Shown piece after piece: positions 4,866 through 32,627 of a stretch of DNA of 64,000 nucleotides (its first letter is position 1; each line of letters starts with the position of its first letter). This DNA is from a plasmid. Where the stretch lies: the sequence record NZ_CP090684.1, one strand, 5' to 3'. Made by a program: the position numbers and the translations under genes. The notes beneath the pieces were generated by a model, which did not search any database, was not told where the DNA came from, and saw only the letters and a program-made list of their open reading frames with translations.

Positions 4866-8110
<3,245 letters not shown>

Positions 8111-9681: not shown

Positions 9682-9706
9682 GATGATCCTCCAGTAAGAG
9701 GCGCGC

Positions 9707-14640: not shown

Positions 14641-14854
14641 GAACGGCTCCATTTTCATACAAATGGCCAGCCGGCCCGGAAGGTTCACCGGCCACCAGGG
14701 TGCTCCATCAGCAAGAGAGTCTATCAGTCCGTTCCAATCGCCGGCAAATAGCGCCGGCTGCGCTGCCCGAAGCAGATGCTCCGAGCTGAGATCAGGATAC
14801 CAATCAATCAGATAGGGGCCGACGTCGCGCGGGTCAGGACGTGAAATTCGCCAA

Positions 14855-14941
14855 CTTCCATTACGTCCAGTCTCTTCCGGTCCGTGACCCGAACGGGTTA
14901 TGGCGCCCCCCGCGTCTCGTCTAATCCCTCGCTGACAGGTT
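14855..14941. repeat. 87-bp direct repeat, copy 1 (copy 2 at 31164..31250; 86/87 identical)
   Basis: cttccattacgtccagtctcttccggtccgtgacccgaacgggttatggcgccc(c/t)ccgcgtctcgtctaatccctcgctgacaggtt occurs at both places in the same orientation, and the flanks differ completely. Confidence 0.85.
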
Positions 14942-15185
14942 GAAGGTCGGCCGGGATAAGCACTTATGCGAAGGTTCGCATATTCACGAATCCCGGCGGA
15001 CCCTCTACTAACTGTTACACGATGGTAAGTCGTTGTTTTGGTATGCACTTCCACTACGAACAGTTTGCCGCTCGCCAACATCGGAGCGCTCTAATTTTTG
15101 CCGTAGGTGCCCGCATCGCTCGAGTTTGCGCCCGACAAGGGGCCGCGGTTCGACACTATCAAATCCAGGCATTCCAATGCAGGGC

Positions 15186-15225
15186 CGAAATATCGACCGA
15201 TTTCTTTCCTGCTTTCGATATTTCG
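15186..15225. promoter_or_regulatory. Candidate ArsR operator: 11-bp inverted repeat CGAAATATCGA-N18-TCGATATTTCG ending 15 bp before the arsR ATG
   Basis: Seen in sequence. Metalloregulator operators of the ArsR/SmtB family are imperfect IRs overlapping the promoter. Confidence 0.4.
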
Positions 15226-15239
15226 ACTACTATTGAAAC

Positions 15240-15575
15240 ATGGAAACAAACCAAACCATTGCCGCCCTCGCGGCACTCGCCCACGAATCCCGGCTCGCCG
15301 TCTTTCGTGCACTCGTGCAAGCGGGGCCGGAGGGCATGCCGGCCGGGCAGATCGCCACGCTGCTGGACGTGCCGCCGTCGTCGCTTTCCTTTCATCTGAA
15401 GGAACTGGCGCATGCACAACTCGTCACCAGCCGCCAGGAAGGCCGCTTCGTCTTCTACTGCGCGAACTTCGCCACGATGAACGGCCTGTTGGCTTACCTC
15501 ACGGAGAACTGCTGCGGCGGCAATCCCTGCTCGCCTGCGGGCGCGTGTTCCCCGGTCAAGGAGCAACACTCATGA
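15240..15575 (+). CDS. arsR: ArsR/SmtB-family arsenic-responsive repressor with C-terminal Cys cluster
   Basis: wHTH (LLDVPPSSLSFHLKELAHAQLV) without the canonical ELCVCDL site; C-terminal ENCCGGNPCSPAGACSP resembles AfArsR-type As(III) sites. Confidence 0.9.
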   Translation: METNQTIAALAALAHESRLAVFRALVQAGPEGMPAGQIATLLDVPPSSLSFHLKELAHAQLVTSRQEGRFVFYCANFATMNGLLAYLTENCCGGNPCSPAGACSPVKEQHS

Positions 15576-16051
15576 AGCGCTTCCATGTGCACATCAGCGT
15601 GCCGGATCTCGTTGACAGCATCCGTTTCTATTCGGCGCTGTTCGCCGCTGAGCCGACCGTCGTCAAGAGCGACTACGCGAAATGGATGCTCGACGATCCT
15701 CGCGTCGACTTCGCGATCTCGCAGCGCGGCGCGGCGCCCGGTCTAGATCATCTTGGCGTGCAGGTCGAAAACGATGCCGAGCTGGCGGAGATGCATACGC
15801 GCTTGAACGGCGCCGCGCTGCCGGTCGACGAGCAAATCGGTACGGCGTGCTGCTACGCCCGCTCCGACAAGTACTGGACGGTCGACCCGCAAGGCATCGC
15901 ATGGGAAACGTACCAGACGCTCGGCGACGTCCCCACCTTCGGCGAATCCCGTAACGCGTCGGCGGCTGAATCGAATGCCGACGCTTCTGCTTGCTGTTCC
16001 CCTGCACGCGGCAAGCCGATCGGCGTGCCGGTGAAATCGTCCTGCTGCTGA
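15572..16051 (+). CDS. arsI: ArsI-like C-As lyase / glyoxalase (VOC) family protein
   Basis: Within track ORF 15107..16051; ATG at 15572 after AGGAG, overlapping the arsR stop (ATGA). VOC fold with the vicinal Cys pair IGTACCYARSDKYWTVDPQG, as in characterised ArsI (TCCYA motif, recalled). Confidence 0.65.
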   Translation: MKRFHVHISVPDLVDSIRFYSALFAAEPTVVKSDYAKWMLDDPRVDFAISQRGAAPGLDHLGVQVENDAELAEMHTRLNGAALPVDEQIGTACCYARSDKYWTVDPQGIAWETYQTLGDVPTFGESRNASAAESNADASACCSPARGKPIGVPVKSSCC

Positions 16052-16060
16052 GGTCCAACC

Positions 16061-16555
16061 ATGAGCGACAAGCCCTACAACGTGCTGTTCATCTGTACCG
16101 GCAATTCCGCCCGATCGATCCTGTCCGAGGGACTGATGAACCGCCTTGGCGAGGGCCGCTTCGTGGCGTACTCGGCGGGCAGTCATCCGAAAGGCGAGGT
16201 GAATCCGTTCGCGCTGCGCGAGCTGGCGCGTTGGCAATTGCCGACCGAAGGCTACCGGAGCAAGAGCTGGGACGAATTCGCGGCACCCGGCGCACCGGCG
16301 CTCGATTTCGTCTTCACCGTGTGCGACAAGGCCACCGGCGAGGTGTGCCCGATCTGGCCCGGTCAACCGATCACCGCACATTGGGGTGTGCCTGACCCGG
16401 CCGACGTCGAGGGCTCCGACGAACAGAAACAGCAGGCCATGCACGACGCCGCGCTGACGTTGAAGCGTCGTATCGACCTGCTGCTGTCATTGCCGCTCGC
16501 CAAACTCGACAACGTCGCACTGCAAAAGTCCCTGACCGAGATCGGGCAAAAGTAA
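16061..16555 (+). CDS. arsC: Arsenate reductase, LMW-PTP / thioredoxin-coupled type
   Basis: P-loop LFICTGNSARSIL (CX5R), downstream Cys (TVCDKATGEVCP) and the AHWGVPDP motif. Confidence 0.85.
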   Translation: MSDKPYNVLFICTGNSARSILSEGLMNRLGEGRFVAYSAGSHPKGEVNPFALRELARWQLPTEGYRSKSWDEFAAPGAPALDFVFTVCDKATGEVCPIWPGQPITAHWGVPDPADVEGSDEQKQQAMHDAALTLKRRIDLLLSLPLAKLDNVALQKSLTEIGQK

Positions 16556-16572
16556 CTTTGGATCGTCAACCC

Positions 16573-17067
16573 ATGACCACGAACGTACTGATCCTCTGCA
16601 CCCACAACTCGGCGCGCAGCGTGCTGTCCGAAGGGATGCTCAATCATTGGGCCGCGAAGCTCGGCAAGGACGTCCGCGCATACAGCGCCGGCAGTGCGCC
16701 GAGCGGTCGCCTCAATCCGTTCGCGCTGGAAGCGCTGACGACCGCTGGCGTCGACGTGAGCGGCTACCGCAGCAAGAGCTGGGACGAGTTCGTCGGCGAT
16801 GGTGCGCCGGAGATGCGCGTCGTCATTACGGTGTGCGACAGCGCGGCCGCCGAGACGTGCCCGTACTGGCCCGGCAGCCCCGTCAAAGTGCATTGGGGCT
16901 ACGCCGATCCGTCGAACGCGTTGGGCGGCGACGAAGGCAAGCGACTCGCCTTCGAACTCACGCGCCAGGCGATCGGCTATCGCATGCTGCAGTTGTTGGC
17001 GCTGCCGCTTGATCGCATGAGCAATGCCGAACTCCAGACGGCGTTGACCGAGATCTCGCAAAACTGA
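16573..17067 (+). CDS. arsC: Second tandem LMW-PTP-type arsenate reductase / phosphatase paralog
   Basis: Within track ORF 16558..17067 (TTG); ATG at 16573. LILCTHNSARSVL P-loop, TVCDSAAAETCP, VHWGYADP. Confidence 0.8.
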   Translation: MTTNVLILCTHNSARSVLSEGMLNHWAAKLGKDVRAYSAGSAPSGRLNPFALEALTTAGVDVSGYRSKSWDEFVGDGAPEMRVVITVCDSAAAETCPYWPGSPVKVHWGYADPSNALGGDEGKRLAFELTRQAIGYRMLQLLALPLDRMSNAELQTALTEISQN

Positions 17068-17130
17068 CCATTCGCATGGCGGTCCGCTGAACCGCGCGGC
17101 CGCCGACGACTTCAAGACTGAACCCTATCC

Positions 17131-18204
17131 ATGAACACGTCCAATGTCGCCCCGCCGGGCAAGGCCGTCGCAAAGCCTTCCATCAATTTCTTCGAACGCT
17201 ACCTCACCGTCTGGGTGGCGCTGTGCATCGTCGCCGGCATCACGCTCGGCCAGGTGCTGCCCGGCCTGTTCCAGCAGATCGGGCGGATGGAATATGCCCA
17301 GATCAATCTCCCGGTCGGGCTGCTGATTTGGGTGATGATCATCCCGATGCTGGTCAAGGTCGACTTTGGCGCGCTGCATGAAGTGCGTCAGCACGTCAAA
17401 GGCATCGGCGTCACGCTCGTCGTCAACTGGCTCGTCAAGCCATTTTCGATGGCGTTTCTCGGTTGGTTGTTCATCCGCCATCTGTTCGCGCCGATGCTGC
17501 CGACGGACCAGCTCGACAGCTACATCGCCGGCCTGATCCTGTTGGCCGCAGCACCGTGTACGGCGATGGTGTTCGTGTGGAGTCGACTGACGGGCGGCGA
17601 TCCGCTGTTCACGTTGTCGCAGGTCGCGCTGAACGACAGCATCATGGTGATCGCCTTCGCGCCACTGGTCGGCCTGCTGCTCGGCATGTCCGCAATCACG
17701 GTGCCGTGGGCGACGTTGCTTACGTCCGTCGTGCTCTACATCGTTATCCCGGTGATCATTGCGCAGATCCTGCGTAAGCGGCTGCTCGCGAATGGTCAGG
17801 CTGCATTCGATGCCGCGATGGCGAGGATCGGCCCTTGGTCGATCGCGGCGCTGCTGGCCACGCTTGTGCTGCTGTTCGCGTTCCAGGGCGAAGCGATCCT
17901 GAAGCAGCCTCTGGTGATCGCGCTGCTCGCGGTGCCGATCCTGATTCAAGTGTTCTTCAACTCGGCGCTCGCGTACTGGCTCAACCGCGCCGTAGGCGAG
18001 AAGCACAACATCGCGTGCCCGTCGGCGCTGATCGGCGCATCCAACTTCTTCGAGCTTGCCGTCGCGGCCGCGATCAGCCTGTTCGGTTTCCATTCCGGCG
18101 CGGCACTGGCTACCGTCGTCGGCGTGCTGATCGAGGTGCCGGTCATGCTGTTGGTGGTGCGCATCGTCAACCAGTCGAAGGGCTGGTACGAGTGCCGGAC
18201 CTGA
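17131..18204 (+). CDS. acr3: ACR3-family arsenite efflux permease
   Basis: 10-TM BART-superfamily profile. LILLAAAPCTAMVFVW contains the conserved Cys of Acr3. Confidence 0.9.
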   Translation: MNTSNVAPPGKAVAKPSINFFERYLTVWVALCIVAGITLGQVLPGLFQQIGRMEYAQINLPVGLLIWVMIIPMLVKVDFGALHEVRQHVKGIGVTLVVNWLVKPFSMAFLGWLFIRHLFAPMLPTDQLDSYIAGLILLAAAPCTAMVFVWSRLTGGDPLFTLSQVALNDSIMVIAFAPLVGLLLGMSAITVPWATLLTSVVLYIVIPVIIAQILRKRLLANGQAAFDAAMARIGPWSIAALLATLVLLFAFQGEAILKQPLVIALLAVPILIQVFFNSALAYWLNRAVGEKHNIACPSALIGASNFFELAVAAAISLFGFHSGAALATVVGVLIEVPVMLLVVRIVNQSKGWYECRT

Positions 18205-18205
18205 C

Positions 18206-19438
18206 ATGTCCACGCATGCACCCCGCCCGCACGCATGGCTGACGCCGTCGCTCGGGCTGACGCAGATCGTCGGCTGGGGTTCCATGTTTTACGCGTACGG
18301 CGTCCTGATGCAACCGATGCAGGACGAGCTGGGTCTGTCGAAGCCAGTCGTCGTCGGCGCCTATTCGGTGGCGCTGCTGATCTCGGGGCTGTTGTCCACG
18401 TCGGCCGGCAGCATCATCGACCGCGTCGGCGGGCGCGCCCTGATGGCGGGCGGATCGTTGCTGGCGGCGCTGATGCTTGTCTGCTTGTCACGGGTGAATA
18501 ACGTGGTCGGGCTGTATCTCGTGTGGGCCGGCATCGGCGTTGCGATGAGCGCAACTCTCTACCAGCCTGCGTTCACCGTCATCACGCAGATATTCGGTAA
18601 CGACTACCGCCGCGCGATCACGCACCTGACCTTGTTCGGCGGTTTCGCCAGCACGGTGTTCTGGCCGCTGACGCAAACGCTGTTGCAGCACGTCGGATGG
18701 CGCGACACATGGCAGCTCTATGCCGGCGCGAATCTGGCGATCTGCGTGCCCGTGCATGTCGCGCTGCCAAGTCGTTCACACGCACCGCATGGCGTGACGC
18801 CAACGCAAACGGAACAGCCGGCCGCTAACCTTGGCGCTGTCCTGCGCGACCCGGCCTTCTATCTGGTGACCGCGGCGGTCACGCTCAATGCGCTGGTGTT
18901 CGCCGCGATGTCGCTGCACATGATCGCGGTCTTGCAGGCGCATGGCATTTCCGCCGCGAACGCGGCATGGGTGGGGGCGCTGGTTGGGCCGATGCAGGTT
19001 CTCGGCCGCGTGCTGGAAACGACGATCGGCAAACGCGCGAGCACGCGCCAGGTCGGCATGGCCGCGATGGCGTTGCTGCCGCTTTCGCTGGTCCTGCTCT
19101 TTGCGTCCGGGACGTGGCTGCCCGTGTACGTTGTTTTCGCGGCGCTGTATGGCATCGGCAACGGCGTCATGACGATTGTCCGCGGTGCATTGCCTGCGGA
19201 ACTGTACGGGCGAACCGCCTATGGCGCGATCAGCGGGGCGATGGCGACGCCCGTGCAGATTGCCATCGCCGCCGGTCCGTTCGTTGCATCACTCCTGTAT
19301 GTCGCCGGGAACGGCTATCCCGGCACGCTATTGGCCCTGGCCGGCATCGGCGCGACAGGTGCGATCCTGTTCCGCTACGCGATCTTGCATTTGCGCCATC
19401 ACGCTGTCCCTCTATCGAAGCAAGGAATCTCGACATGA
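18206..19438 (+). CDS. MFS transporter embedded in the ars operon (ArsK/ArsJ-like organoarsenical or arsenite exporter candidate)
   Basis: 12-TM MFS profile, immediately after acr3 (2-nt gap), and its stop overlaps the next arsC start (ATGA). No adjacent gapdh, so ArsJ coupling is not supported. Confidence 0.7.
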   Translation: MSTHAPRPHAWLTPSLGLTQIVGWGSMFYAYGVLMQPMQDELGLSKPVVVGAYSVALLISGLLSTSAGSIIDRVGGRALMAGGSLLAALMLVCLSRVNNVVGLYLVWAGIGVAMSATLYQPAFTVITQIFGNDYRRAITHLTLFGGFASTVFWPLTQTLLQHVGWRDTWQLYAGANLAICVPVHVALPSRSHAPHGVTPTQTEQPAANLGAVLRDPAFYLVTAAVTLNALVFAAMSLHMIAVLQAHGISAANAAWVGALVGPMQVLGRVLETTIGKRASTRQVGMAAMALLPLSLVLLFASGTWLPVYVVFAALYGIGNGVMTIVRGALPAELYGRTAYGAISGAMATPVQIAIAAGPFVASLLYVAGNGYPGTLLALAGIGATGAILFRYAILHLRHHAVPLSKQGIST

Positions 19439-19857
19439 GCAACATCACGATCTATCACAACCCGGATTGCGGCACGTCGCGCAACGCGCTGGCCCTGATC
19501 CGCAACAGCGGCGAGGAGCCTGTCGTCATCGAGTATCTCAGGACGCCCCCGTCGCGGGAAACGCTGGTCAAGCTGCTGGCCGATGCCGGCCTGACCGTAC
19601 GCGAGTTACTGCGGGAGAAAGGCACGCCTTATGCGGAACTCGGTCTGGGCGATCCGAAGTGGACCGATGAGCAACTGCTCGACTTCATCGGGCAGCATCC
19701 GATCCTGATGAACCGGCCGATCGTGGTTACGCCGATCGGCACGAAGCTATGCCGGCCGTCCGAAGCCGTGCTGGATATCCTGCCGAACCCGCAGACGGGG
19801 CCTTTCACCAAGGAAGATGGCGAAGTCGTGATCGATGCGGAGGGCAAGCGTGTCTGA
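19435..19857 (+). CDS. arsC: Arsenate reductase, glutaredoxin-coupled (R773 ArsC/Spx family)
   Basis: Tail of track ORF 18967..19857; ATG at 19435 overlapping the MFS stop. [17 protein letters not shown] with catalytic Cys12. Confidence 0.85.
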
Positions 19858-20572
19858 GCAATTGAACGACATGCCGCAGCTCGACGCCACGCTGTTCCGC
19901 GTGCCGGACGCCGCTCAATTGCGGCCGGCGACACCGTCGACGCATCCGCCTCGACTCCTGCTTCTGTACGGCTCGCTGCGCGAGCGTTCGTTCAGCCGTC
20001 TGCTGGTCGAGGAAGCCGAGCATTTGCTCACGGCGATGGGGGCCGAAGTCCGTGTGTTCAATCCGAGCGGCTTGCCGCTGCCCGATGATGCGCCGGAAAG
20101 CCATCCGAAGGTGGTCGAGCTGCGCGAGCTGGTGATATGGTCGGAAGGCATGGTGTGGTGCTCGCCGGAACGACACGGCGCGATGACGGGGATCATGAAA
20201 TCGCAGATCGACTGGATTCCGTTGTCGGTCGGCGCAGTCCGGCCGACGCAGGGCAAGACGCTTGCGGTGATGCAAGTCAGCGGCGGTTCGCAGTCGTTCA
20301 ACGCCGTGAACCAGATGCGCGTGCTCGGACGCTGGATGCGCATGCTGACCATCCCGAACCAGTCGTCGGTGGCCAAGGCGTTCGCGGAATTCGACGAAGC
20401 GGGTCGGATGAAACCATCGCCCTACTACGATCGTGTTGTCGATGTCATGGAAGAGCTGGTCAAGTTCACTCTGCTGACCCGAGATATCGGCCCGTATCTG
20501 GTCGACCGGTACAGCGAGCGAAAGGAAAGCGCCGAGGAACTGTCGAAGCGCGTGAACCAGCGAAGTATCTAG
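19835..20572 (+). CDS. arsH: ArsH, NADPH-dependent FMN reductase (organoarsenical oxidase)
   Basis: [16 protein letters not shown] flavodoxin-like P-loop, ...[13 protein letters not shown].... Start ambiguous: ATG 19835, in-frame GTG 19850 or ATG 19871. It overlaps the arsC 3' end. Confidence 0.85.
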
Positions 20573-20593
20573 AATCCGGTCCAAGGAGTAAGG

Positions 20594-21022
20594 ATGGAGA
20601 TCCGCCCCGCCACTGTCGACGACCTAGCGTCGATCGAAACGCTGCTGCGTCAATGTGGCCTTCCCGTCGTTGGCGTCAGCGACCACTTGCGGAACTTCGT
20701 AGTCGCGACGGAAGGTTCAATGATGTGCGGATGCGGTGGCCTTGAGCACTATGGTGACGCCGCACTTGTGCGCTCTATTGCGGTAGCTGAACGTGCACGC
20801 GATTCTGGTCCGGGGCAACGTATCGTGTCGCGGCTCGTCGCCGAGTGTCATGCGCTACAAGTTCGGTCGCTTGTGCTGCTCACCACGACCGCGGAGCACT
20901 ATTTCACCCGTCTAGGGTTCGTGCGCGTTGCGCGTGGCGACGTAATGCCCTTGGTGTTGGCGTCGAGCCAATTCCAAGGCGTATGTCCGGGATCGGCCGT
21001 CTCGATGTTGCGAGTTCTGTAG
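20594..21022 (+). CDS. GNAT-family N-acetyltransferase at the end of the ars operon (ArsN2-like candidate)
   Basis: 142 aa with a GNAT fold pattern (acetyl-CoA binding region RIVSRLVAECHALQVRSLVLLTT). The ArsN assignment rests on position only. Confidence 0.55.
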   Translation: MEIRPATVDDLASIETLLRQCGLPVVGVSDHLRNFVVATEGSMMCGCGGLEHYGDAALVRSIAVAERARDSGPGQRIVSRLVAECHALQVRSLVLLTTTAEHYFTRLGFVRVARGDVMPLVLASSQFQGVCPGSAVSMLRVL

Positions 21023-21111
21023 CCATTGACGGGAGCACCAAGGGATCGGTCCGACAAGGGGGATCTGCTTGCCTTCGATGCGATTTACCGGTGGTCGCCC
21101 CCGGTCAAAGA

Positions 21112-21507
21112 TTATTGGCTGCCGTATTTCGCTTGCCAGCGCTTCATCTTCGTAATTTCTTCCTTTTGTGCTTTGACGATGCTTCGGGCAAGCCTTCTCA
21201 TCTCAGGATCCTTGCCGTACTTCAGTTCGGCTGCCGCCATATCGATTGCGCCTTGATGGTGCGGAATCATGTGGGAAACAAAATCTTTGTCAGCGTCGCC
21301 GGTGTAGGTCTGTCCTTGCATCCTTCGCATCATCCTCTGGTCTGCACCCTTGAAGGCTTGTACAGACGCCGAATTAGCTTTAGTCGACTGCCCCATATTC
21401 ATGTCTGGCATGGACGTGGCTTGCTGAGCACTCGTTGTACCGATCATCAGGCCGAGCGTTGCAATTACGTTGATGACGAACCACGGGATGGAAATTCGCG
21501 TTTGCAT
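21112..21507 (-). CDS. DUF305-family periplasmic protein (metal-stress associated)
   Basis: Track ORF 21112..21618; start MQTRISIPWFVINVIATLGLMIGTTSAQQ (ATG ends 21507, AGGAGG upstream). Hallmark FVSHMIPHHQGAIDMA. Confidence 0.8.
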   Translation of the reverse strand: MQTRISIPWFVINVIATLGLMIGTTSAQQATSMPDMNMGQSTKANSASVQAFKGADQRMMRRMQGQTYTGDADKDFVSHMIPHHQGAIDMAAAELKYGKDPEMRRLARSIVKAQKEEITKMKRWQAKYGSQ

Positions 21508-21658
21508 ATTTACCTCCTGATGCATAAAAATTATGCTTTCGGGAAACGAACAATTTTTGCTGGTCGAACTTTTTCCACTTTCGACACTGATTCGAGGCTT
21601 CATGACGGCGCAATCCACGCTCCTGTGCCGCGCACTAGTACCCCTTCGAGGAGAATCC

Positions 21659-23053
21659 TCATCGTTCCCGCGGGAATTGCAAGTGGAACGTCGTACTGAC
21701 GTCGTTACTCGAAACCTGGACTTGTCCCCGGTGCAGTTCCATGATCGATTTCACGATCGCGAGTCCCAGCCCGGCATTCTTCGAGGATCCATGACGTGAC
21801 GCGTCGACACGGTAGAAGCGCTCAAAGATTCGATCAAGATGTTCCGGCGCGATAGGCCGTCCGTGGTTGGTCACTTCAACGACGACGTATTGCAGCGAGC
21901 GAGACGAGGCGAGTTTGATTGCCGTGCCTGCGAACGCATGGTCCAAAGCGTTGGATATGAGGTTGCTCACCGCTCGTCGAAAAAGCGTTGCATCCGCGAC
22001 CACATGCGCGTCGCCGACGACGACAAAATTGACCCCCTTTTCGTCCGCAATGCTCTGATAATAGGACGCCAGTCGTTGCAGTTCCATCTCAGTATCAAGG
22101 TCCGATACCTTCAGGTGCAGGTGTGCATTCTCTGTACGTGCAAGGAACAGCATGTTCTCGATCATCCGTTGCAGACGTTCGCATTCTTCGATGTTCGAAT
22201 CGATCAACGCCTCATATTCGTCGCTCGTTCTCGGTCGCGACAACGTGACCTGCGACGAGCTGATCACGTTGGCAAGCGGGGTGCGCATATCGTGGGCGAG
22301 GTCGGAGGAGAACTGAGAAAGGCGCACAAACGCACGTTCAAGTCGATCCAGCATTCGATTGACCGACGACGCGAGTTCGCGGAGCTCCATCGGACCGCCG
22401 CGAATGTCGAGTCGCTCGCTCAAATTGTGCGCTTCGATAATTGACGTCTGGCGGCCCAGACTTTCCACTGGACGAAGGCCTCGACGTGCGATCGCATAGC
22501 CCAAGCCACCGAGCAATATCGCGCCGACGGCGACCGCCAGCCAGATGTCGACGCGATAGCTTTTCAGAAGCGACTGCCGGTCGGTCGCGGTCCGTACAAG
22601 GGCGATCCGTACATCTTCGCCTGACGGCAGCCTGTCGCGCGCGAAAACACAGCGTGATGGCCCGATTCCCGTCGGATCGCACGTGTATGGAATACGAGGC
22701 GGACGGTCGCTCGAGGCGATCGACTTCAACGTCACGCCCGGCGCGGCCGTGTGCTCGATCAGCGAATTGTTTTGCCCGTCGTAGATCCCAAGATACACAC
22801 CGGGATGCGAGAGCAGTACCTCGTGAAATACCGCAGGCGTTGCACGAATGGCCTGTACCGAACCGCTGGCGTGAGCCAACTGCAGAAACTGGCTCAGCTT
22901 GCCACCGATTTCGATGTCGTCGCGGCGCTGCAGTTCAATCGACAGGGACCGATACAGGTAAGCTCCAGTCAGCGCAAACGCTAGTCCTGCGACGACAGCG
23001 AAGGCGACGGTCAACCGAGTGAGCAGTGAGTAAGGTGCCGCCTTCCCCGTCAT
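21659..23053 (-). CDS. Heavy-metal sensor histidine kinase (CopS/CusS family)
   Basis: [20 protein letters not shown]-box, a HAMP domain, and HATPase G-boxes (NAGLGLAIVKSIMELH); a periplasmic loop between two TMs. Confidence 0.85.
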   Translation of the reverse strand: MTGKAAPYSLLTRLTVAFAVVAGLAFALTGAYLYRSLSIELQRRDDIEIGGKLSQFLQLAHASGSVQAIRATPAVFHEVLLSHPGVYLGIYDGQNNSLIEHTAAPGVTLKSIASSDRPPRIPYTCDPTGIGPSRCVFARDRLPSGEDVRIALVRTATDRQSLLKSYRVDIWLAVAVGAILLGGLGYAIARRGLRPVESLGRQTSIIEAHNLSERLDIRGGPMELRELASSVNRMLDRLERAFVRLSQFSSDLAHDMRTPLANVISSSQVTLSRPRTSDEYEALIDSNIEECERLQRMIENMLFLARTENAHLHLKVSDLDTEMELQRLASYYQSIADEKGVNFVVVGDAHVVADATLFRRAVSNLISNALDHAFAGTAIKLASSRSLQYVVVEVTNHGRPIAPEHLDRIFERFYRVDASRHGSSKNAGLGLAIVKSIMELHRGQVQVSSNDVSTTFHLQFPRER

Positions 23054-23721: not shown

Positions 23722-23794
23722 GGGAGTGCAGTAGGACTGTCAACGGGTTCGACGCGGGGAGCGCTGCGCTCAGCATACGGCCGCGAAAGCGCGC

Positions 23795-23826
23795 AAAAAA
23801 TGACGGCCGGATGACAATTTTTTCAT
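23795..23826. promoter_or_regulatory. Candidate CopR/CusR-type box in the divergent copRS/cop promoter region: AAAAAATGAC-GGCCGG-ATGACAATTTTTTCAT
   Basis: ATGAC-N6-ATGAC direct repeat flanked by A/T tracts. TGACA half-sites resemble the E. coli CusR box (AAAATGACAANNTTGTCATTTT, recalled). Confidence 0.3.
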
Positions 23827-24011
23827 GAATCTCCGAGCGCCGGAACAGCGAGAGCCGTCCACCGCCGCTGGATGAAAAAATGGTCATCTTTCGACCACGC
23901 CGTCGTCACGCATCGGCCGTTAAGCTAAATACCGGCTATACCGCTTGTGGTTACACCCGGACACGTTCTCGATGTTATCGTTTCGAACTGCTCGTGCTAG
24001 ACTCCGCACCC

Positions 24012-24413
24012 ATGTCATATTGGCGCAAACTCTTCGTCGTCGTGCTGTTGGCACTGAGCCTGCCGGTTCAGTCGTTCGCGGCTATCTCGATGAATTGCGT
24101 CGCTTCGCATGCCGAAGCCAGCGAAACGCCGATCGTGCATGCCGGGCAGTCCATGTCCGGGCATCATCGCGACATGCATGGAGCGGCGCTCGCGGCCGAC
24201 GACCATCACACTTATCACCACGGCGGCGGTCATCACGCGCATTCATGTTCGACATGCGCAGCCTGCTGCTTCGGCACGGGATTACCCGCGGTTCCCTCCG
24301 TCGTCGTATCGTCGGACGTAACACGCGTCACCACCTCGATTCCGCCTTCTGCCGGTGTCGTGTCTTTCCTGACCGACGGCATCGAGCGACCTCCTCGCCA
24401 CACCCTCGTCTGA
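24012..24413 (+). CDS. Small secreted His/Cys-rich protein (CopL/DUF2946-like putative periplasmic metal binder)
   Basis: Track ORF 23880..24413; ATG at 24012. MSYWRKLFVVVLLALSLPVQSFAA signal peptide; GHHRDMH, HHTYHHGGGHHAHSCSTCAACCF. Confidence 0.6.
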   Translation: MSYWRKLFVVVLLALSLPVQSFAAISMNCVASHAEASETPIVHAGQSMSGHHRDMHGAALAADDHHTYHHGGGHHAHSCSTCAACCFGTGLPAVPSVVVSSDVTRVTTSIPPSAGVVSFLTDGIERPPRHTLV

Positions 24414-24500
24414 TTCTCCACCGCGGGTAATGCCCGCGATGTGCCATTCGTACTGACGGTCTTGCGTGGACCCGTCAGATGATTCACGACGAGAAAATTT

Positions 24501-24818
24501 ATGCGACTGATTTCTGCGGCGCTGCTCGGCGCGGCGGCTTCATTGCCGACGCTCGTGCACGCCACCACAACGATTCCCGACCCGACGGATGCCGCGGCCT
24601 CGGTCCCGGCGATTTCGGCGCCGTCGGCCTTCAACGGCTATCGCCCCTACAACGACGCCGACAACCCGACCTGGCAACAACTCAATCAAGCGGTCCAGGA
24701 GAAGCCGGCCAAGGGCGGCATGACGCACGGCGGCGCAATGGGCCACGGCGGCGCCATGAACAAGCCCGCTGGCGACCATCAGTCGAATCATTCGCAGCAT
24801 GGGGAGCCCGCCAAATGA
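24501..24818 (+). CDS. Small secreted Met/His-rich protein (putative periplasmic Cu binder)
   Basis: Signal peptide MRLISAALLGAAASLPTLVHA; C-terminus GGMTHGGAMGHGGAMNKPAGDHQSNHSQHGE. Stop overlaps the next gene start (ATGA). Confidence 0.55.
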   Translation: MRLISAALLGAAASLPTLVHATTTIPDPTDAAASVPAISAPSAFNGYRPYNDADNPTWQQLNQAVQEKPAKGGMTHGGAMGHGGAMNKPAGDHQSNHSQHGEPAK

Positions 24819-26311
24819 TGAAGCGACTCGTTTCAACGCGCATGGGTGCGGGCGTTTCCATCATGGTGTTTCTGGCTGGCTGCACCACCTTCTCGAAGGA
24901 CGGTGGATTCGGTACGGTGTCGTCGACGGCTACGGAGCGGCTCGGTAAGGACGCGGTTATCGTCAAAACCGATGCCGATCGGGATGCAGTGGCGAAGCGA
25001 ACGCAGGAATTGCTCGCCAAGCCGCTGTCGATGGACGATGCCGTACAGGTCGCCCTGCTGAACAACCGAGGACTGCAGGCCTCGTATGCGGAATTGGGGC
25101 TGTCGGAAGCCGATTTGGTCCAGGCCGGGCGACTGCCGAATCCAGGCTTCACCTTCAGCCGCACGCGAGCGGGCAACGGCGACCTGAGCATCGGCCGCAC
25201 ATTCTCCGCGAACGTACTCAGTATTCTGACGCTGCCTTTCGCTGCCCACATCGAGGGCCGACGCTTCGAACAGACGAAGCTCGAGACTGCCGATACGATG
25301 CTGAAGCTCGCCGCCGAGGCGCGGCGGGCGTACGTCAACGCGGTGGCCGCGGAGCAGGCTGCCAAGTACGCGGAACAGGTAAAAGATTCGGCCGACGCAG
25401 GCGCCGAACTCGCTTCACGCATGCGGCAGGCCGGAAACTTCAGCAAACTCGATTATGCGCGAGAGCAAGCCTTCTACGCGGACTCGGTCGCCCAGGCCGC
25501 CAAGGCCCGGCAGCAAGCCGTATCGGCCAGGGAGAAACTCACGCGCACGATGGGCGTATGGGGCACTGGTACGCAGTACACCTTGCCTGAGCGTTTACCG
25601 GACTTGCCAAAGGACCGCCCGGAACTGAAAGATCTTGAGCGGTTTGCGATGCAGAACCGGCTCGACATCCAGGCAGCGAAGCTGCAGACGCAAGGCGTCG
25701 CATCGTCGTTGGGCCTCAGCAAGGCAACGCGGTTCATCAACGCAATCGATGTTGGTTACCAAAACAACTACGAAACCGACAAGGGTCACGAGCACGGCTA
25801 CGAAATCAGTATCGAGATTCCCATTTTCGATTTCGGCAGCGCCAAGGTCGCCCGCGCGGAAGCCATCTACATGCAGTCGGCGAACCGCCTTGCCCAAACG
25901 GCGATTGATGCACGATCGGAGGTCCGCGAGGCGTATTCCGCGTACGTGAACAGCTACGACGTCGCGAAACACTATCGCGACGAGGTTGTGCCGATTCGCA
26001 AGACGATTTCTGACGAACTTCTGCTCCGCTACAACGGCATGCTCGCCAGTGTCTTCGAACTGCTCGCCGACTCGCGCGAGCAAGTCGGCGCGGTGAACAG
26101 CTACATCGACGCGCTGAAGGACTACTGGCTCGCCGAAACGGATCTCCAGCAAGCGCTGGGCGGACGTTTACCGAGGGCTGGGGCCGAGCAAACCGAGCAG
26201 ACGCCTCCGGGGCCGAATTCCGCACCGCAGTCCGCCCCGAGACCGGCAGCCCGGCCGGAGCCTGCCTCGACCGCGCAACCGGCGCATGAAACGCATTCGG
26301 AAGGTAAATAA
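24815..26311 (+). CDS. Efflux outer-membrane lipoprotein, NodT/TolC family
   Basis: Frame of track ORF 24479..26311; start MMKRLVSTRMGAGVSIMVFLAGC (lipobox LAGC). TolC-type duplicated repeats. Confidence 0.8.
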   Translation: MMKRLVSTRMGAGVSIMVFLAGCTTFSKDGGFGTVSSTATERLGKDAVIVKTDADRDAVAKRTQELLAKPLSMDDAVQVALLNNRGLQASYAELGLSEADLVQAGRLPNPGFTFSRTRAGNGDLSIGRTFSANVLSILTLPFAAHIEGRRFEQTKLETADTMLKLAAEARRAYVNAVAAEQAAKYAEQVKDSADAGAELASRMRQAGNFSKLDYAREQAFYADSVAQAAKARQQAVSAREKLTRTMGVWGTGTQYTLPERLPDLPKDRPELKDLERFAMQNRLDIQAAKLQTQGVASSLGLSKATRFINAIDVGYQNNYETDKGHEHGYEISIEIPIFDFGSAKVARAEAIYMQSANRLAQTAIDARSEVREAYSAYVNSYDVAKHYRDEVVPIRKTISDELLLRYNGMLASVFELLADSREQVGAVNSYIDALKDYWLAETDLQQALGGRLPRAGAEQTEQTPPGPNSAPQSAPRPAARPEPASTAQPAHETHSEGK

Positions 26312-26312
26312 C

Positions 26313-27608
26313 ATGGTGTCCCGTCGACAATTTCTCAGCGGCTCGGGGGCCGCAATCCTCGGCGCCGCGATGGTCAGCAAGGCCGGCGCGGCTTCGTTGC
26401 CGGAAGCACCGACCATGGCAAAGGCGACGATGCAGCCGCCGCTCGTGCCACCCAACGGTCGGCCATACACACCGGTCGCGACGTTGAACGGCTGGACGCT
26501 GCCGTGGCGCATGAAGAACGGCTGGAAGGAGTTTCACCTGACAGCCGAGCCCGTCGTGCGCGAAATGGCTCCCGGGATGAAGGCCAATCTGTGGGGTTAT
26601 AACGGTCAGTCGCCTGGCCCGACGATCGAGGCCGTCGAAGGCGACAAGGTCCGCATCTTCGTCACCAACAAGCTGCCGGAGCACACCACGATCCACTGGC
26701 ACGGGATGCTGCTACCGAACGGCATGGACGGCGTCGGCGGCTTGACGCAGCCGCACATCCCGCCCGGCAAGACGTTCGTCTACGAGTTTCAGCTCGAGAA
26801 GCATGGCACGTTCATGTATCACCCGCACGCGGACGAGATGGTTCAGATGGCGATGGGCATGATGGGCATGTTTATCGTGCACCCGAAGGACCGCAGCGTG
26901 ATGCCGGTCGACCGCGATTTCGTGTTCCTGCTGTCCGCCTATGATATCGACCCGGGCAGCTTCACGCCGCGTGTGAACGAGATGACCGACTTCAACATGT
27001 GGACGTTCAACTCACGCGTATTCCCTGGCATCGATCCGTTGCCAATTCGGGCCGGCGACCGCGTGCGCATCCGGTTCGGCAATCTGACGATGACGAATCA
27101 CCCGATTCACCTGCATGGCTACCACTTCGAAGTGGCGGGTACGGACGGCGGCTGGATCCCGCCGGCCGCTCGTTGGCCGGAGGTGACGGCCGACGTCGCC
27201 GTCGGCCAGATGCGCGCAATCGAGTTCACCGCCGATCGTCCTGGCGACTGGGCGTTCCATTGCCACAAGTCGCACCACACGATGAACGCAATGGGCCATA
27301 GCGTTCCGAACATGATCGGCGTGCCGCAGAAGGACTTGGCCAAACGCATCAACAAGCTCGTTCCCGACTACATGGCCATGGGCAGCACCGGTGGCGCAAT
27401 GGGCGAGATGGAGATGCCGCTACCCGACAACACACTGCCGATGATGACCGGTACGGGCCCATTCGGGCCGTTGGAGATGGGCGGCATGTTCACAGTCGCC
27501 AAGGTCCGGCAAGGGCTCGGGCGGAACGACTATCGCGACCCGGGCTGGTTCAAGCATCCCAAAGGCACCGTCGCATACGAATACACCGGTGAACTGCCGG
27601 ACAGTTGA
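26313..27608 (+). CDS. Multicopper oxidase (small, about 431 aa) with Tat signal
   Basis: Track ORF 26286..27608; preferred ATG 26313 (GGAAGG upstream; MVSRRQFLSGSGAAILGA twin-arginine motif). Copper sites HWHGM, HPH, HLHGYHF, HCHKSHH plus a Met-rich region (MAMGMMGMF, MAMGSTGGAMGEMEM). Confidence 0.85.
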   Translation: MVSRRQFLSGSGAAILGAAMVSKAGAASLPEAPTMAKATMQPPLVPPNGRPYTPVATLNGWTLPWRMKNGWKEFHLTAEPVVREMAPGMKANLWGYNGQSPGPTIEAVEGDKVRIFVTNKLPEHTTIHWHGMLLPNGMDGVGGLTQPHIPPGKTFVYEFQLEKHGTFMYHPHADEMVQMAMGMMGMFIVHPKDRSVMPVDRDFVFLLSAYDIDPGSFTPRVNEMTDFNMWTFNSRVFPGIDPLPIRAGDRVRIRFGNLTMTNHPIHLHGYHFEVAGTDGGWIPPAARWPEVTADVAVGQMRAIEFTADRPGDWAFHCHKSHHTMNAMGHSVPNMIGVPQKDLAKRINKLVPDYMAMGSTGGAMGEMEMPLPDNTLPMMTGTGPFGPLEMGGMFTVAKVRQGLGRNDYRDPGWFKHPKGTVAYEYTGELPDS

Positions 27609-27673
27609 TTTACACAACAAGGTCGGGGCACGCCCGACCGTCGGTTTCATCACCTCAACTCTGGAGAAGCACG

Positions 27674-28021
27674 ATGAAGAAAGCACTGTTCTCGATTGCA
27701 ATAGGCTGCGCCCTGGCGTTCTCTGCGTCGACGTACGCGGCAGGCGACATGGGCAACATGGACATGAGCGGTGGCACAAAGCAAAGTACCGACGCGAAGA
27801 GCAGCATGTCGCACGGCGAGATCAAGAAAGTCGACACGACTGCAGGCAAGCTGACCATCAAGCACGGTCCCCTCGAAAACCTTGGCATGGAAGCGATGAC
27901 GATGGTGTTCAAGGCCAAGGATCCGGCGATGCTGTCGCAGGTGAAGGTCGGCGACAAGATCGATTTCGTCGCCGAGGAAGTCAACGGCGCACTGACGGTC
28001 GTCAAGCTGCAGAAGCAGTGA
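27674..28021 (+). CDS. cusF: CusF-like periplasmic Cu(I)/Ag(I) chaperone
   Basis: Track ORF 27605..28021; ATG at 27674 after GGAG. Signal peptide; HGEIKKVDTTAGKLTIKHGPLENLGMEAMTMVF (H...M-x-M CusF site). Confidence 0.8.
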   Translation: MKKALFSIAIGCALAFSASTYAAGDMGNMDMSGGTKQSTDAKSSMSHGEIKKVDTTAGKLTIKHGPLENLGMEAMTMVFKAKDPAMLSQVKVGDKIDFVAEEVNGALTVVKLQKQ

Positions 28022-28082
28022 CGACAATCGACGGGGACGCGCAGCCGCGGTCCCTGTCTCATTCTTCGAGACGAGCAACAAT

Positions 28083-28457
28083 ATGAAGATTTTGACCCTC
28101 AGACATTTTGCCGGCCTCGCCGTCGCTAGTGCTGTTGCGTTCGCGCCCATCGCCGCGCTCGCACACGGCAAACTGGAAAGCGCAACGCCGGCGTCGGGCA
28201 GTACCGTCGACGTCGCGCCGGACGCATTGCGCCTGACCTTCAATGAAGACCTCGAGTCGACCTTCAGCTCGGTGAAAATCGCCGATGCTACGGGTGCGCC
28301 GGTGACGAAAGAAAAGGCGAAGATCGATGCGTCGAATCCGCGCGTCATGACGCTCGTCGTACCGAAGCTCGCGTCGGGAGCGTATACGGTTCAGTGGGCC
28401 GTCATGACTTCGGACGCGCACAAGACCAAGGGTACGTACACGTTCAAGGTGAAGTAA
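28083..28457 (+). CDS. copC: CopC periplasmic copper chaperone
   Basis: Signal peptide then HGKLESATPASGSTV (N-terminal His site); cupredoxin-like CopC family length. Confidence 0.85.
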   Translation: MKILTLRHFAGLAVASAVAFAPIAALAHGKLESATPASGSTVDVAPDALRLTFNEDLESTFSSVKIADATGAPVTKEKAKIDASNPRVMTLVVPKLASGAYTVQWAVMTSDAHKTKGTYTFKVK

Positions 28458-29398
28458 TGAACGACGGGTTCCTGGGCATCCTGCGTCTGATCGCCGTAGC
28501 GATCCAGAACGTTGGCTTCGCCGTCATCGTAGGCGCGTTGCTCAGCAGTCAATGGCTCGCGCGCGGTGACTCCACGTGGCAAGCCGACGTGGGCCGACGG
28601 CTCGTCCTGACAGTCCGGATGGCGTCCACGCTTGCTCTGCTCGCGAGCGTGTTGTCGTTCTGGGCACATTGCGCGCTGATGAGTGAGTCAACGTTGCTTG
28701 AGGCCGGGCCCGCGGTGTGGTCGATGCTCGTGGGAACCGGCTTTGGACACGCGTGGCTGGTCGCTGCAGTTTTCATGGTTTGCGTGGTCGTGCTGGCATT
28801 GCTGCGATCGGGTAGCGATGGGAGTTTCCCGACCGGAATCTGGCTTGCTTTGGCCGCCGTAGCATTGGCACGCAGCAATGGCGGACATCCAGTCGATTCC
28901 GGACTCTTCAGCCTTCCGGTGTGGGTCGATTGGTTGCATTTGCTAGCCATCAGCGCGTGGGTCGGGCTCGTTCTCGTGACGACCTACGTCGTCATGCCGC
29001 GGCTGCTCGATGCCCCTGGAAGCGAACGGCAGACCAGTGCATCATTCGTGCAATCGCTGTCCGACACCTCGACGTACGCGTTGGTGATTTTGTTCAGCAC
29101 TGGCGCATACAACGGCTGGCGAGGCGTCAGTACGCCGGCGAATTTGTGGACATCGACGTATGGACAGATCCTACTGCTGAAGTTCGTGCTCGTGCTGGTC
29201 GCCGCCGCGCTGGGCGGACACAATCGCTTCTTTGAAATGCCGACGCTAATGTCGACGCTGAAGAACCCTGCTCAAGAAGTCCCGACCGTGCCGCTTCGAC
29301 GATTCAGTACGGTGCTTCACGTCGAGTCACTGATTTTGCTTGGTGTCTTGATGGTAGCGGCCGTGCTCGTATCGAGCCCGTTGCCGGGAACCACATAA
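28457..29398 (+). CDS. copD: CopD inner-membrane copper resistance protein
   Basis: Track ORF 28394..29398; ATG at 28457 overlapping the copC stop; 8-TM profile typical of CopD. Confidence 0.85.
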   Translation: MNDGFLGILRLIAVAIQNVGFAVIVGALLSSQWLARGDSTWQADVGRRLVLTVRMASTLALLASVLSFWAHCALMSESTLLEAGPAVWSMLVGTGFGHAWLVAAVFMVCVVVLALLRSGSDGSFPTGIWLALAAVALARSNGGHPVDSGLFSLPVWVDWLHLLAISAWVGLVLVTTYVVMPRLLDAPGSERQTSASFVQSLSDTSTYALVILFSTGAYNGWRGVSTPANLWTSTYGQILLLKFVLVLVAAALGGHNRFFEMPTLMSTLKNPAQEVPTVPLRRFSTVLHVESLILLGVLMVAAVLVSSPLPGTT

Positions 29399-29474
29399 AT
29401 TCGTCGGTCCCTCCGTCCACGCAGGTGGTCTGTCACTCATGTGCGAGTTGCGCGTGAGCGGGCCATCTCTTTGC

Positions 29475-29503
29475 AGCCCGGCCCTCCAGCCGGGCTCTTT
29501 TTT
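29475..29503 (+). terminator. Rho-independent terminator after copD
   Basis: agcccggc-cctcc-agccgggct stem then T7 (ctcttttttcat). Confidence 0.6.
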
Positions 29504-29654
29504 CATTCCGCATTGCGTTTGGTCGACGATTCCAGATGAAGGACGCGTGACCAAAAGATCATATTCATGTCACGGCTCGATCAGTGGCTGCTCTCCACAA
29601 TGACTTTCAATGGAGTCGCATGTGCGGTTCCATGCCTCGCAATGGAGAGAAAAC

Positions 29655-29987
29655 ATGAAACTTCAAATCGTCGCCGCCCTCATAGTGGTCGCCTGTGCCG
29701 CCACGTCCGCGTCTGCATTCGCTGATAGCGGGCACGGTTATCCCGACGTTACGCGAAACGGCAGCGTGGTATCGAACGAAAGCGTTGCTGCACCGGCAAC
29801 GGCGCAAATTGAAAACACGGTATCGCGCGGCAAGACCCGAGAGCAGGTTCAACAGGAACTTATTCAGGCTTATCACGATGGTTTGCTGCCAACGAGCAAG
29901 CATGACTATCCGCCCAGCGAAGCGACTATCGCGCGCAACAAGGAACTCCATCAGTTAAGTGAGCCGAAGTGGGCCGCACAGCATTGA
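29655..29987 (+). CDS. DUF4148-like small secreted protein (third paralog)
   Basis: Track ORF 29610..29987; ATG 29655 after GGAGAG; signal peptide; QAYHDGLLPTSKHDYPPSEATIARNKELH. Confidence 0.75.
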   Translation: MKLQIVAALIVVACAATSASAFADSGHGYPDVTRNGSVVSNESVAAPATAQIENTVSRGKTREQVQQELIQAYHDGLLPTSKHDYPPSEATIARNKELHQLSEPKWAAQH

Positions 29988-30097
29988 GGCACGCACCGTT
30001 GCGGAAAGCCAGGCGTTGCTCAGCCTGAACGTACACGACTCCGGCCATATTCCATGTGGAACGTAGGCTCGCCAGACCAGATAGAGGAGTTCACGCG

Positions 30098-30295
30098 ATG
30101 AGACCGATACCCGGCATATGGATTTATGTGACGGCGATTACTACGGTCCTGGCTCTTGATGGATGTGCGAGCGCGACGGGCAATACGGATGGGAAGACGC
30201 GGATGCCGGACTCCCGTTCCGCAACGACCCGATTACCGAAGTCCTATCCGTGTCAAAATCTGCACGTGCGTTCGGCGAATTGCCCGCCGCGCTGA
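30098..30295 (+). CDS. Possible small lipoprotein
   Basis: Track ORF 30056..30295; ATG 30098 with a strong AGAGGAG SD; MRPIPGIWIYVTAITTVLALDGC lipobox-like. Followed by the 10-bp IR GTGCCACGCC/GGCGTGGCAC (30305-30314 / 30343-30352). Confidence 0.3.
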   Translation: MRPIPGIWIYVTAITTVLALDGCASATGNTDGKTRMPDSRSATTRLPKSYPCQNLHVRSANCPPR

Positions 30296-30364
30296 CGGCA
30301 ACGTGTGCCACGCCTCTTGCGTGCGCGATATCACCGACGCCGGGCGTGGCACGGAGCTGACCGT

Positions 30365-30694
30365 CTACTGAGCCATCGTCCGGCATTCCTGAGCGCAGCG
30401 TCGACAAACTTGTGCGCATTCTTTGCAATGCGCATGTTGATGTTTCTCGCATTCGGTTGCGCACGCGTCGCACAAAGTCGCGCAACTCGAGCAAACTGCC
30501 TTGACTTGCTTGCTGCCTCGCGCCATCGCTGCGGAAGCGAGGCGGCACAGCGTGGCGCAATCCAGGTCGAGTTTGATGCAGTCAATAAGCTGGCCGACTT
30601 GGGTCTCTTCAAGACACGCGGCCGCGCAATGATCGCAAGCGGTCGCGCAAGCGTCGCAGGCCGAGATGCATGTCTGGTATTGTTGATGTGCCAT
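30365..30694 (-). CDS. Cys-rich four-helix-bundle copper-binding protein (Csp/DUF326-like), cytosolic
   Basis: Track ORF 30365..30760; start MAHQQYQTCISACDACATACDHCAAAC...; repeated CxxxC spacing throughout; no signal peptide. Confidence 0.75.
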   Translation of the reverse strand: MAHQQYQTCISACDACATACDHCAAACLEETQVGQLIDCIKLDLDCATLCRLASAAMARGSKQVKAVCSSCATLCDACATECEKHQHAHCKECAQVCRRCAQECRTMAQ

Positions 30695-30855
30695 TTTGAC
30701 TCTCCTATCGTGGACTGCCCGGATCGGGCCCGACTCGTCGCGCAAGCGTTGTACCCACATTCCGGATTAGCCCCACGCGGCTCCAGTGGCGGGGACGTTT
30801 CAGCGTTGAAACGTCAGTACAATTCCGATGTAATCACCGGCATCGGCGGACTATA

Positions 30856-31233
30856 ATGCTGGCTATGAAATTGCTCCGGACCTTCATCCTGTCGCTGCTC
30901 TGCGCGGTGCTGCCCATCAGCGGGCTGGCAGCCAGTGGCTTGACCGGTGAATGTCCGATGCAGCAAACCATGTCCATGGGCGCGGATGCCAGCATGTCCG
31001 GCGATATGCCGGGCTGCGATTTGATGAAGTCCTCGTCCGTCGATAAAGCCAAGGCCAAGAGCGTGTTCTGCAAAGTGACCGCCCAGTGTCAGTTCGGCAG
31101 CCTCTATCATCCAGCCGCCAAGACCGACATCAGCCGTCCCGCTGCGGTCGGTACGCCCGTCATCTTCCATTACGTCCAGTCTCTTCCGGTCCGTGACCCG
31201 AACGGGTTATGGCGCCCTCCGCGTCTCGTCTAA
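30856..31233 (+). CDS. Small secreted Cys/Met-rich protein; C-terminal 28 codons lie inside the 87-bp repeat
   Basis: Signal peptide MKLLRTFILSLLCAVLPISGLAA; GECPMQQTMSMGADASMSGDMPGCDLM. A TATAAT overlaps the first ATG (30852-30857), so the real start may be 30865 or the gene may be leaderless. Coding status uncertain because of the repeat. Confidence 0.4.
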   Translation: MLAMKLLRTFILSLLCAVLPISGLAASGLTGECPMQQTMSMGADASMSGDMPGCDLMKSSSVDKAKAKSVFCKVTAQCQFGSLYHPAAKTDISRPAAVGTPVIFHYVQSLPVRDPNGLWRPPRLV

Positions 31234-31250
31234 TCCCTCGCTGACAGGTT
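31164..31250. repeat. 87-bp direct repeat, copy 2 (see 14855..14941)
   Basis: 86/87 identity to copy 1; followed by hairpin CACCGCA-gt-TGCGGTG. Confidence 0.85.
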
Positions 31251-31323
31251 CACCGCAGTTGCGGTGAGGTTCGTCCTATGCCGGACGTGGAATCCCTATG
31301 GGATTTCGCATTGGGGTTAGAAC

Positions 31324-32616: not shown

Positions 32617-32627
32617 AGGAGAACGAT

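Follow-up and report, generated by a model that had tools for sequence, protein, structure and literature searches.

The window analysed here, a 64,000-nucleotide stretch of plasmid sequence record NZ_CP090684.1, belongs to a metal-resistance island of mosaic structure on a plasmid of the Burkholderia cepacia complex. It contains an 87-bp direct repeat, the two copies of which bracket 16.3 kb of arsenic (ars) and copper (cop) resistance genes. Comparison with related replicons shows that the right-hand copy (copy 2) sits in its native place and is an ordinary gene end, belonging to the small gene that heads a cusCBAF-type copper/silver efflux operon. The left-hand copy (copy 1) is an orphan, non-coding gene fragment in a spacer made of at least five unrelated pieces. 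The pair is probably best read as a native gene end and a recombination scar, the scar being a stray fragment of the same gene left at a junction of the mosaic island. The features that bear directly on the repeat are listed below, with positions counted from the first base of the window.

14855-14941, plus strand: copy 1, an orphan fragment with the last 22 codons, the stop codon and 17 nt of the copL-like gene; non-coding, with breakpoints at both edges.
31164-31250, plus strand: copy 2, the native 3' end of the copL-like open reading frame (ORF) and the first 17 nt of the spacer between this ORF and cusC.
30865-31233, plus strand: copL-like ORF for a secreted protein of 122 amino acids (WP_012464980.1), the first gene of the cus module, from annotation and translation.
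31251-31266, plus strand: hairpin with a 7-bp stem directly after copy 2, kept in relatives and missing after copy 1.
14657-14854, no strand: spacer of 198 bp between the end of the ATPase-module homology and copy 1.
14942-15006, no strand: near-perfect palindrome of 66 bp that abuts the right edge of copy 1 (start within 1 nt).
15007-15212, no strand: spacer of 206 bp between the palindrome and the ars module.

Alignment of the two copies together with 50 nt of flanking sequence gave 86 identical positions out of 87 in the same orientation, with the similarity ending abruptly at both edges. A repeat finder with looser edges extended the pair to 93 nt (90/93 identical, 14849-14941 against 31158-31250). 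When the 150-nt flanks of the copies were aligned locally, in direct or inverted orientation, the scores did not exceed those of shuffled sequences, showing that the flanks are unrelated. The 87-mer used as a pattern with up to three mismatches was found at exactly two sites in the window, against 0.00 expected from 100 shuffles, and the pair is the only long direct repeat of the 64 kb, the next families being 36-40 nt long at 64-78% identity. The near-identical repeat with unrelated flanks reported in the preliminary description is thus borne out at a level far beyond chance, and it is still the case that gene annotation leaves the repeat unexplained. The sole difference between the copies is one synonymous C/T. 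The allele of copy 1 is of the copy 2 type (GTCC...CGCCC[C/T]CC) and not that of the G4 transposon described below, and the exact copy 2 version of the C/T position is present in one metagenome contig.

The copL-like ORF at 30865-31233 has a signal-peptide-like N-terminus and the motifs CPMQ, CKxxxxC and WRPPR. Copy 2 contributes the last 22 sense codons of this ORF (F101-V122), its stop codon and 17 nt, a correction to the 28 codons previously assigned to it, and the hairpin previously placed after it is real (CACCGCA-GT-TGCGGTG). Homology runs unbroken across both edges of copy 2 and into the hairpins beyond in pBVIE02 of G4, B. pseudomallei p1, B. contaminans, Trinickia, a Burkholderia metagenome-assembled genome (MAG) and two metagenome contigs. 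Copy 2 is regarded as native because this homology is continuous through both edges in relatives that each have one copy. The 87-mer was detected in 22 PLSDB records at 74-100% identity; the 16 of these that do not have the island contain one 87-mer each, which lies within a small ORF upstream of an RND operon wherever the record is annotated. Exact matching of the 75-nt core to species-representative genomes and metagenomes gave four loci, in a Burkholderia MAG, in Trinickia dabaoshanensis and in two metagenome contigs, and in all four the sequence is single-copy and in native context. The genera with a native-context, single-copy sequence are Burkholderia, Trinickia, Caballeronia and Paraburkholderia. 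The search of relatives advised in the preliminary description provided both copy number and context, with one native copy outside the island carriers. Its counter-proposal, that relatives have the repeat once per locus, as the conserved 3' end of a gene, and show no structural variation, essentially describes copy 2.

What the repeat encodes is the conserved C-terminus of a CopL-like protein. The family of the copL-like ORF comprised 62 clusters among 1.84 billion representatives, and alignment of its members revealed a length of about 120 amino acids, a signal peptide, the motifs CPMQ, DCC and CKxGxxC, and a C-terminal WRPPR. The NCBIfam model CopL_fam (NF033807) was matched by 15 of 37 family members at E <= 0.01. 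Weak matches to DUF2946 (Pfam) or CopL_fam were obtained with family members and with a paralogue at 24012-24413. The 122-residue protein itself gave no match to the CopL_fam, DUF2946 or CzcI models in a profile search at E <= 0.1, and the curated cut-off of CopL_fam was not reached. It is a small secreted protein with cysteine motifs encoded upstream of a copper operon, as it adjoins cusCBAF. It therefore resembles the CopL family NF033807, which is related to DUF2946, in size, signal peptide, cysteine motifs, WRPPR end and position, but belongs to a small divergent branch that the model does not match, and its function is putative. The paralogue at 24012-24413 scores 27.8 bits against the CopL_fam cut-off of 40, shares 25% identity with the copL-like ORF and ends in ERPPR. 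It heads the cop cluster, so that both copper operons of the island begin with a CopL-like gene.

The situation of copy 1 is different from that of copy 2 on every side. A tblastn search matched residues 101-122 of the copL-like ORF to 14856-14921 at 100%, and neither alignments nor tblastn found cus-module similarity beyond the edges of copy 1 nearby. The only plus-strand ORF across copy 1 is 27 amino acids long and has no signal peptide. The 87-mer of copy 1 folds no better than shuffled sequence (z +1.2) and has no Rfam match, and no promoter-like or terminator-like site was found in or around it. Copy 1 thus shows what is expected of an orphan gene fragment: it is almost identical to a section of an intact gene, lacks the remainder and has no coding potential, and its parent sequence is single-copy and conserved in context in relatives. 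The order of the region is PIB-4 ATPase, 198 bp, 87-bp repeat, 66-bp palindrome, 206 bp and ars operon. With the two spacers (14657-14854 and 15007-15212) as queries, blastn against PLSDB gave matches only in the island itself, in six plasmids. Copy 1 does lie between the PIB-4 ATPase and arsR, as first described, but the arsH 3' remnant said to adjoin it amounts to a similarity of only 13 residues (RDVGPYLIDWYPD, 14791-14829, minus strand) with a tblastn E value of 0.16 at window scale, and no ArsH profile match to 14791-14829 was reported.

The palindrome next to copy 1, consensus GAGGGTCGGCCGGGATTCGTGAATATGCGAAGCTTCGCATATTCACGAATCCCGGCCGACCCTC, has a DNA fold of -19.6 kcal/mol (z -5.1). Solo homologues with 76-83% identity lie between genes, in unrelated surroundings, in seven further records of Burkholderiaceae plasmids or large replicons: two of Cupriavidus, one of Ralstonia, two of Paraburkholderia and two further ones of Burkholderia. 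It may be compared with MITE or REP-like elements, which are marked by numerous dispersed copies, target duplications and a cognate transposase: the palindrome is dispersed over these records, apparently with one locus in each, and a count of two places fits the matching of a palindrome on both strands. Judged by this distribution, the palindrome is a discrete element that is found alone elsewhere in Burkholderiaceae replicons. It has no Rfam match, no target duplications were seen flanking its homologues, and the literature gave nothing relevant on the palindrome sequence and no description of this island. Identification of the palindrome as the end of a Tn3-family element or as a Tn3-derived inverted-repeat miniature element was rejected, as its arms are unrelated to the inverted repeat of the G4 transposon and target duplications are missing.

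The 16.3-kb interval between the copies is not a unit. It consists of the separately distributed ars, cop and Csp modules and the first 313 bp of the cus module, and is not a unit because ars, cop and cus occur apart or in other orders elsewhere. The modules are the following.

15213-21049, plus strand: ars module (arsR, arsI, arsC, arsC, acr3, MFS, arsC-grx, arsH, arsN2), mobile independently.
21686-29987, no strand: cop module (copSR, the CopL-like paralogue at 24012-24413, TolC, multicopper oxidase, CusF-like, copC, copD, DUF4148), which occurs separately elsewhere.
30851-37707, plus strand: cus module (copL-like ORF, cusC, cusB, cusA, cusF), the left boundary of which recurs.

In the annotation the genes arsR-arsI-arsC-arsC-acr3-MFS-arsC-arsH-arsN2 occupy 15240-21022, followed by DUF305, copSR and the cop cluster at 21112-29987, a Csp-type four-helix-bundle copper protein at 30365-30694 on the minus strand, and the TolC, MFP, RND and CusF genes at 31324-37707, after which comes dsbD. 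Plasmids of B. glumae have the ars module by itself, starting at the same point (15213/15214). This boundary is also used in contig L018 (LPJT01000065.1 of assembly GCA_001532285.1), where the ars module is inverted and lies on the Csp side of the copL-like ORF, adjoining its start. Positions 1-8336 of this contig hold a variant island that has no counterpart of window positions 18198-19844, the stretch with the MFS gene and the glutaredoxin-type arsC. The cop module occurs separately in plasmids of B. pseudomallei, B. contaminans and B. cenocepacia, without cus in those of B. pseudomallei and B. contaminans, and a 3.2-Mb replicon of B. cenocepacia has it downstream of cus and thus in a different order.

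The left boundary of the cus module, at 30851, falls on the same base in five independent contexts: the G4 transposon, the Burkholderia MAG, a metagenome contig of the AACY02 set, contig L018 and the B. cenocepacia replicon. Since this boundary lies 14 nt before the ATG of the copL-like ORF, the cus module is exchanged without its promoter. The right copy of the repeat lies 313 bp inside this conserved module and not at its edge. In one of the five contexts the cus module travels as the cargo of a Tn3-family transposon with tnpA and tnpC and the inverted repeat GGGGCATGG...CATAAG, which is 100% identical in pBVIE02 of G4, B. pseudomallei p1 and two B. contaminans plasmids. The left inverted repeat of this transposon is GGGGCATGGACAAGGTAAGCGCGAATTCCTATCATAAG, and its cargo is copL-like-cusCBAF-dsbD. 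On plasmid p1 of Burkholderia sp. IDO3 a transposon copy (of the 95% type) is present at about 290 kb besides the island, bringing the 87-mers on that plasmid to three. The transport of cus by a Tn3-family transposon and the third copy in IDO3 p1 make extra cus modules on one replicon plausible. Between the repeat copies (14942-31163), no integrase or transposase is annotated in the RefSeq record of 100% identity; the closest integrase lies some 15 kb further right, at about 46.3-47.4 kb. No terminal inverted repeats were detected at the inner or outer edges of the interval, where alignment scores were at or below those of shuffled sequence.

The region from 12000 to 36900 is 100% identical in five complete plasmids, from Burkholderia sp. 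IDO3 (p1), B. aenigmatica, B. vietnamiensis, Burkholderia sp. MBR-1 and B. multivorans, while a sixth plasmid, from B. multivorans, holds the island across the origin of its record. Both copies of the repeat are present in all six. The same stability was seen in contigs, for which each look-up covered the 24 longest of about 300 contig blocks. The neighbours were the same in 24 of 24 contigs with an identical ATPase, and the native order cop-Csp-ORF-TolC was found in 24 of 24 with an identical TolC. Among the contigs with an identical ArsR, 23 of 24 have the ATPase-ars arrangement of the window, the exception being the more divergent L018, and all contigs with an identical small ORF or Csp have the native order cop-Csp-ORF-cus. 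The junction expected after deletion (ATPase spacer, 87 nt, cusC hairpin) had no match in the genome collection, and that of a circle (ORF, 87 nt, palindrome) had none in the metagenome collection; as far as exact matching of the core 75-mer reaches, either junction is absent from both collections. No PLSDB record combines a lone 87-mer with the ATPase spacer or the palindrome. No orphan copy of the 87-mer was found on any other replicon in PLSDB or in the genome and metagenome collections. The window follows IDO3 p1, the match with the best annotation, only to 40.9 kb, and beyond this point it lacks the IS1071 and IS21 insertions of IDO3. Beyond 40.9 kb there is a backbone of B. multivorans type, with the integrase (about 46.3-47.4 kb, minus strand) and then an imuA-imuB-dnaE2 mutagenesis cassette.

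Copy 1 would most likely be the scar of illegitimate or short-homology recombination that assembled the island. It could be all that is left of a second cus module, formerly at this place and eroded from both sides, or the product of break repair beside the palindrome in which a short stretch of the cus module served as template. Its present role would be that of passive 87-bp homology only, through which RecA could rarely delete, circularise or tandemly amplify the 16.3 kb. The identity and setting of the two copies, the modular composition of the interval and the lack of recombinase genes and of variants are shown by the sequences; how copy 1 arose, and that it is neutral, we infer. The repeat had previously been attributed to modular insertion or to duplication by recombination, and what stands of this is the duplicated fragment made by recombination; the bracketed segment as a module does not, as its right edge lies inside cus and ars and cop occur apart elsewhere; mobility genes are missing as well. 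Its description as a site able to delete or circularise the segment holds in principle, through RecA, but no deletion, circle or other variant was found. The likeness to repeats that support RecA-dependent deletion or amplification lies in the two same-orientation copies of 87 bp at 99% identity around 16.3 kb of resistance genes; the difference is that no amplified, deleted or circular form occurs in the sequences examined, and the homology is short, with low rates expected.

Several points weigh against reading copy 1 as a scar. Intermediate arrangements were not encountered in any relative, and PLSDB offered no source for the two spacers. With a single C/T difference, a separate donor allele of 99% identity, gene conversion and very recent copying fit equally well. 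The structure is also exactly that expected of a single crossover between a circle and a pre-existing 87-bp remnant. The contig counts come from the longest blocks only, and the data are assembled consensus sequences, in which rare products of deletion, circularisation or amplification in populations are invisible.

The crossover just mentioned would be of Campbell type: a circle with the palindrome, ars, cop, Csp and the copL-like ORF would have entered, by one crossover, an 87-bp copL remnant between the ATPase and cusCBAF, making both repeats at once. The topology fits exactly, with the same orientation, near-identity and an interval bounded precisely by the repeats; the modules of this island family do move, and the minimal length for RecA recombination is below 87 bp. 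This event is nevertheless unlikely. It needs a recipient with the junction ATPase-87 bp-cusC and a donor with the junction copL-87 bp-palindrome, and neither junction is present in PLSDB or in the genome or metagenome collections. It must also recreate by chance the order Csp-copL-cus, which is independently present in B. contaminans plasmids and a metagenome contig, and earlier events are still required for the truncated recipient. There is, in addition, a slim chance that the repeats serve as a RecA-dependent copy-number switch, with loop-out or amplification of ars-cop under metal stress, or that the palindrome is an undescribed element that provokes breakage and templated repair; the latter, if true, would explain a copied patch.

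Copy 1 is neither an att site, a transposon end nor a regulatory element. Accessory resistance genes bracketed by direct repeats, one of them overlapping the 3' end of a gene, recall the attL and attR sites of a site-specific integrative element, or else transposon ends or a target duplication, carrying ars and cop, and tyrosine recombinase genes do occur elsewhere on the plasmid. Such an origin is extremely improbable, as the interval has no integrase or transposase in or beside it (the nearest is about 15 kb away) and no terminal inverted repeats, does not behave as a unit, and is composite, with a right end that cuts a conserved module. Furthermore, the collections searched contain neither an empty site nor a circle junction nor a second site of insertion. 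Target duplications of transposons and insertion sequences are short, 2-14 bp. To our knowledge 87 bp far exceeds any known target duplication, and the length of the repeat argues against one. It is very improbable that copy 1 was retained as a cis element, an operator, promoter or RNA element from the copL-cusC region acting on the ATPase or on arsR. Copy 1 does lie within a divergent promoter region, and among close relatives 90% of columns are invariant in the 87 nt and 93% in the spacer that follows, against 81% in the 5' part of the ORF. This excess of conservation is modest, however, is gone once a more distant relative is added, and is accounted for by the C-terminal WRPPR motif of the protein. 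The sequence has no promoter-like or terminator-like site, structure or Rfam family, the conserved hairpins that follow copy 2 were not carried over, and no other replicon in the collections searched has an orphan copy. A collapsed or mis-joined repeat produced by assembly has a virtually negligible probability, given that six complete plasmids, each sequenced independently, and over 20 other assemblies share the same two-copy structure.

The scar reading therefore places copy 1 in a familiar class, and the feature is not new in kind: it is an orphan gene fragment at the junction of a mosaic resistance island. Like other such fragments, it is short and non-coding and is nearly identical to part of a gene whose intact version is on the same replicon; its neighbours are unrelated modules and another relic, the arsH pseudogene, and it is stably inherited along with the island. 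It differs in that no insertion sequence, integron or transposon end is visible at either edge of copy 1 to explain the truncations, and in that one edge abuts the palindrome. The case shows that resistance genes can be surrounded by a striking long repeat without forming a mobile unit. The appropriate annotation for copy 1 is a pseudogene fragment of the copL-like gene, and the ars-cop interval should not be handled as a cassette. The repeats may provide a substrate for the loss or amplification of arsenic and copper resistance on plasmids of clinical and environmental Burkholderia; beyond correct annotation the significance is slight.

The region to the left of copy 1 contains two further features, and beyond them a czc-type RND operon with irlRS at 2779-11014 on the minus strand, according to the RefSeq annotation of the identical stretch.

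12055-14640, minus strand: intact PIB-4-type heavy-metal P-type ATPase of 861 amino acids, with SPC and HEGST motifs and Pfam/NCBIfam matches.
11179-11992, minus strand: arsH pseudogene, full length but disrupted, with an arsC tail, on the far side of the ATPase; inverted repeats to the live arsC-arsH.

SPC and HEGST are signatures of the PIB-4 group among the P1B subgroups, and the earlier assignment of the ATPase to this group is confirmed by them. Its nearest relatives are Roseateles proteins with 80% identity, and DNA homology to the Roseateles ATPase loci stops at 14656, 16 nt upstream of the start codon. The homologues begin at the same methionine as the annotated start, and a 1008-residue minus-strand ORF that runs through copy 1 is therefore a spurious upstream extension of the ATPase. 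For the same reason, truncation of the 5' end of the ATPase at the junction was ruled out. At 80% amino acid identity the protein is closest to those of Roseateles, Pelomonas and Variovorax and not to those of Burkholderia; in these relatives the ATPase gene comes after czcRS and a czcI-like gene. A czcI-like gene hidden in the spacer was ruled out, as tblastn with the Roseateles CzcI-like protein found nothing. The His-rich linker of the window ATPase is about 40 residues shorter than that of its homologues.

Past the ATPase, tblastn matched arsH residues 1-245 to the minus strand at 11179-11901, where several stop codons and changes of frame interrupt the gene. The possibility that one arsH was split by the ATPase, with the left flank of copy 1 and this relic as its halves, was ruled out because 11179-11901 is full length and has its own C-terminus. 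Together with its glutaredoxin-type arsC tail the pseudogene is 78-83% identical in DNA sequence to the intact arsC-arsH at 19787-20572. The stretch 11179-11992 is what remains of an earlier ars operon, and the ATPase now stands between it and the live one.

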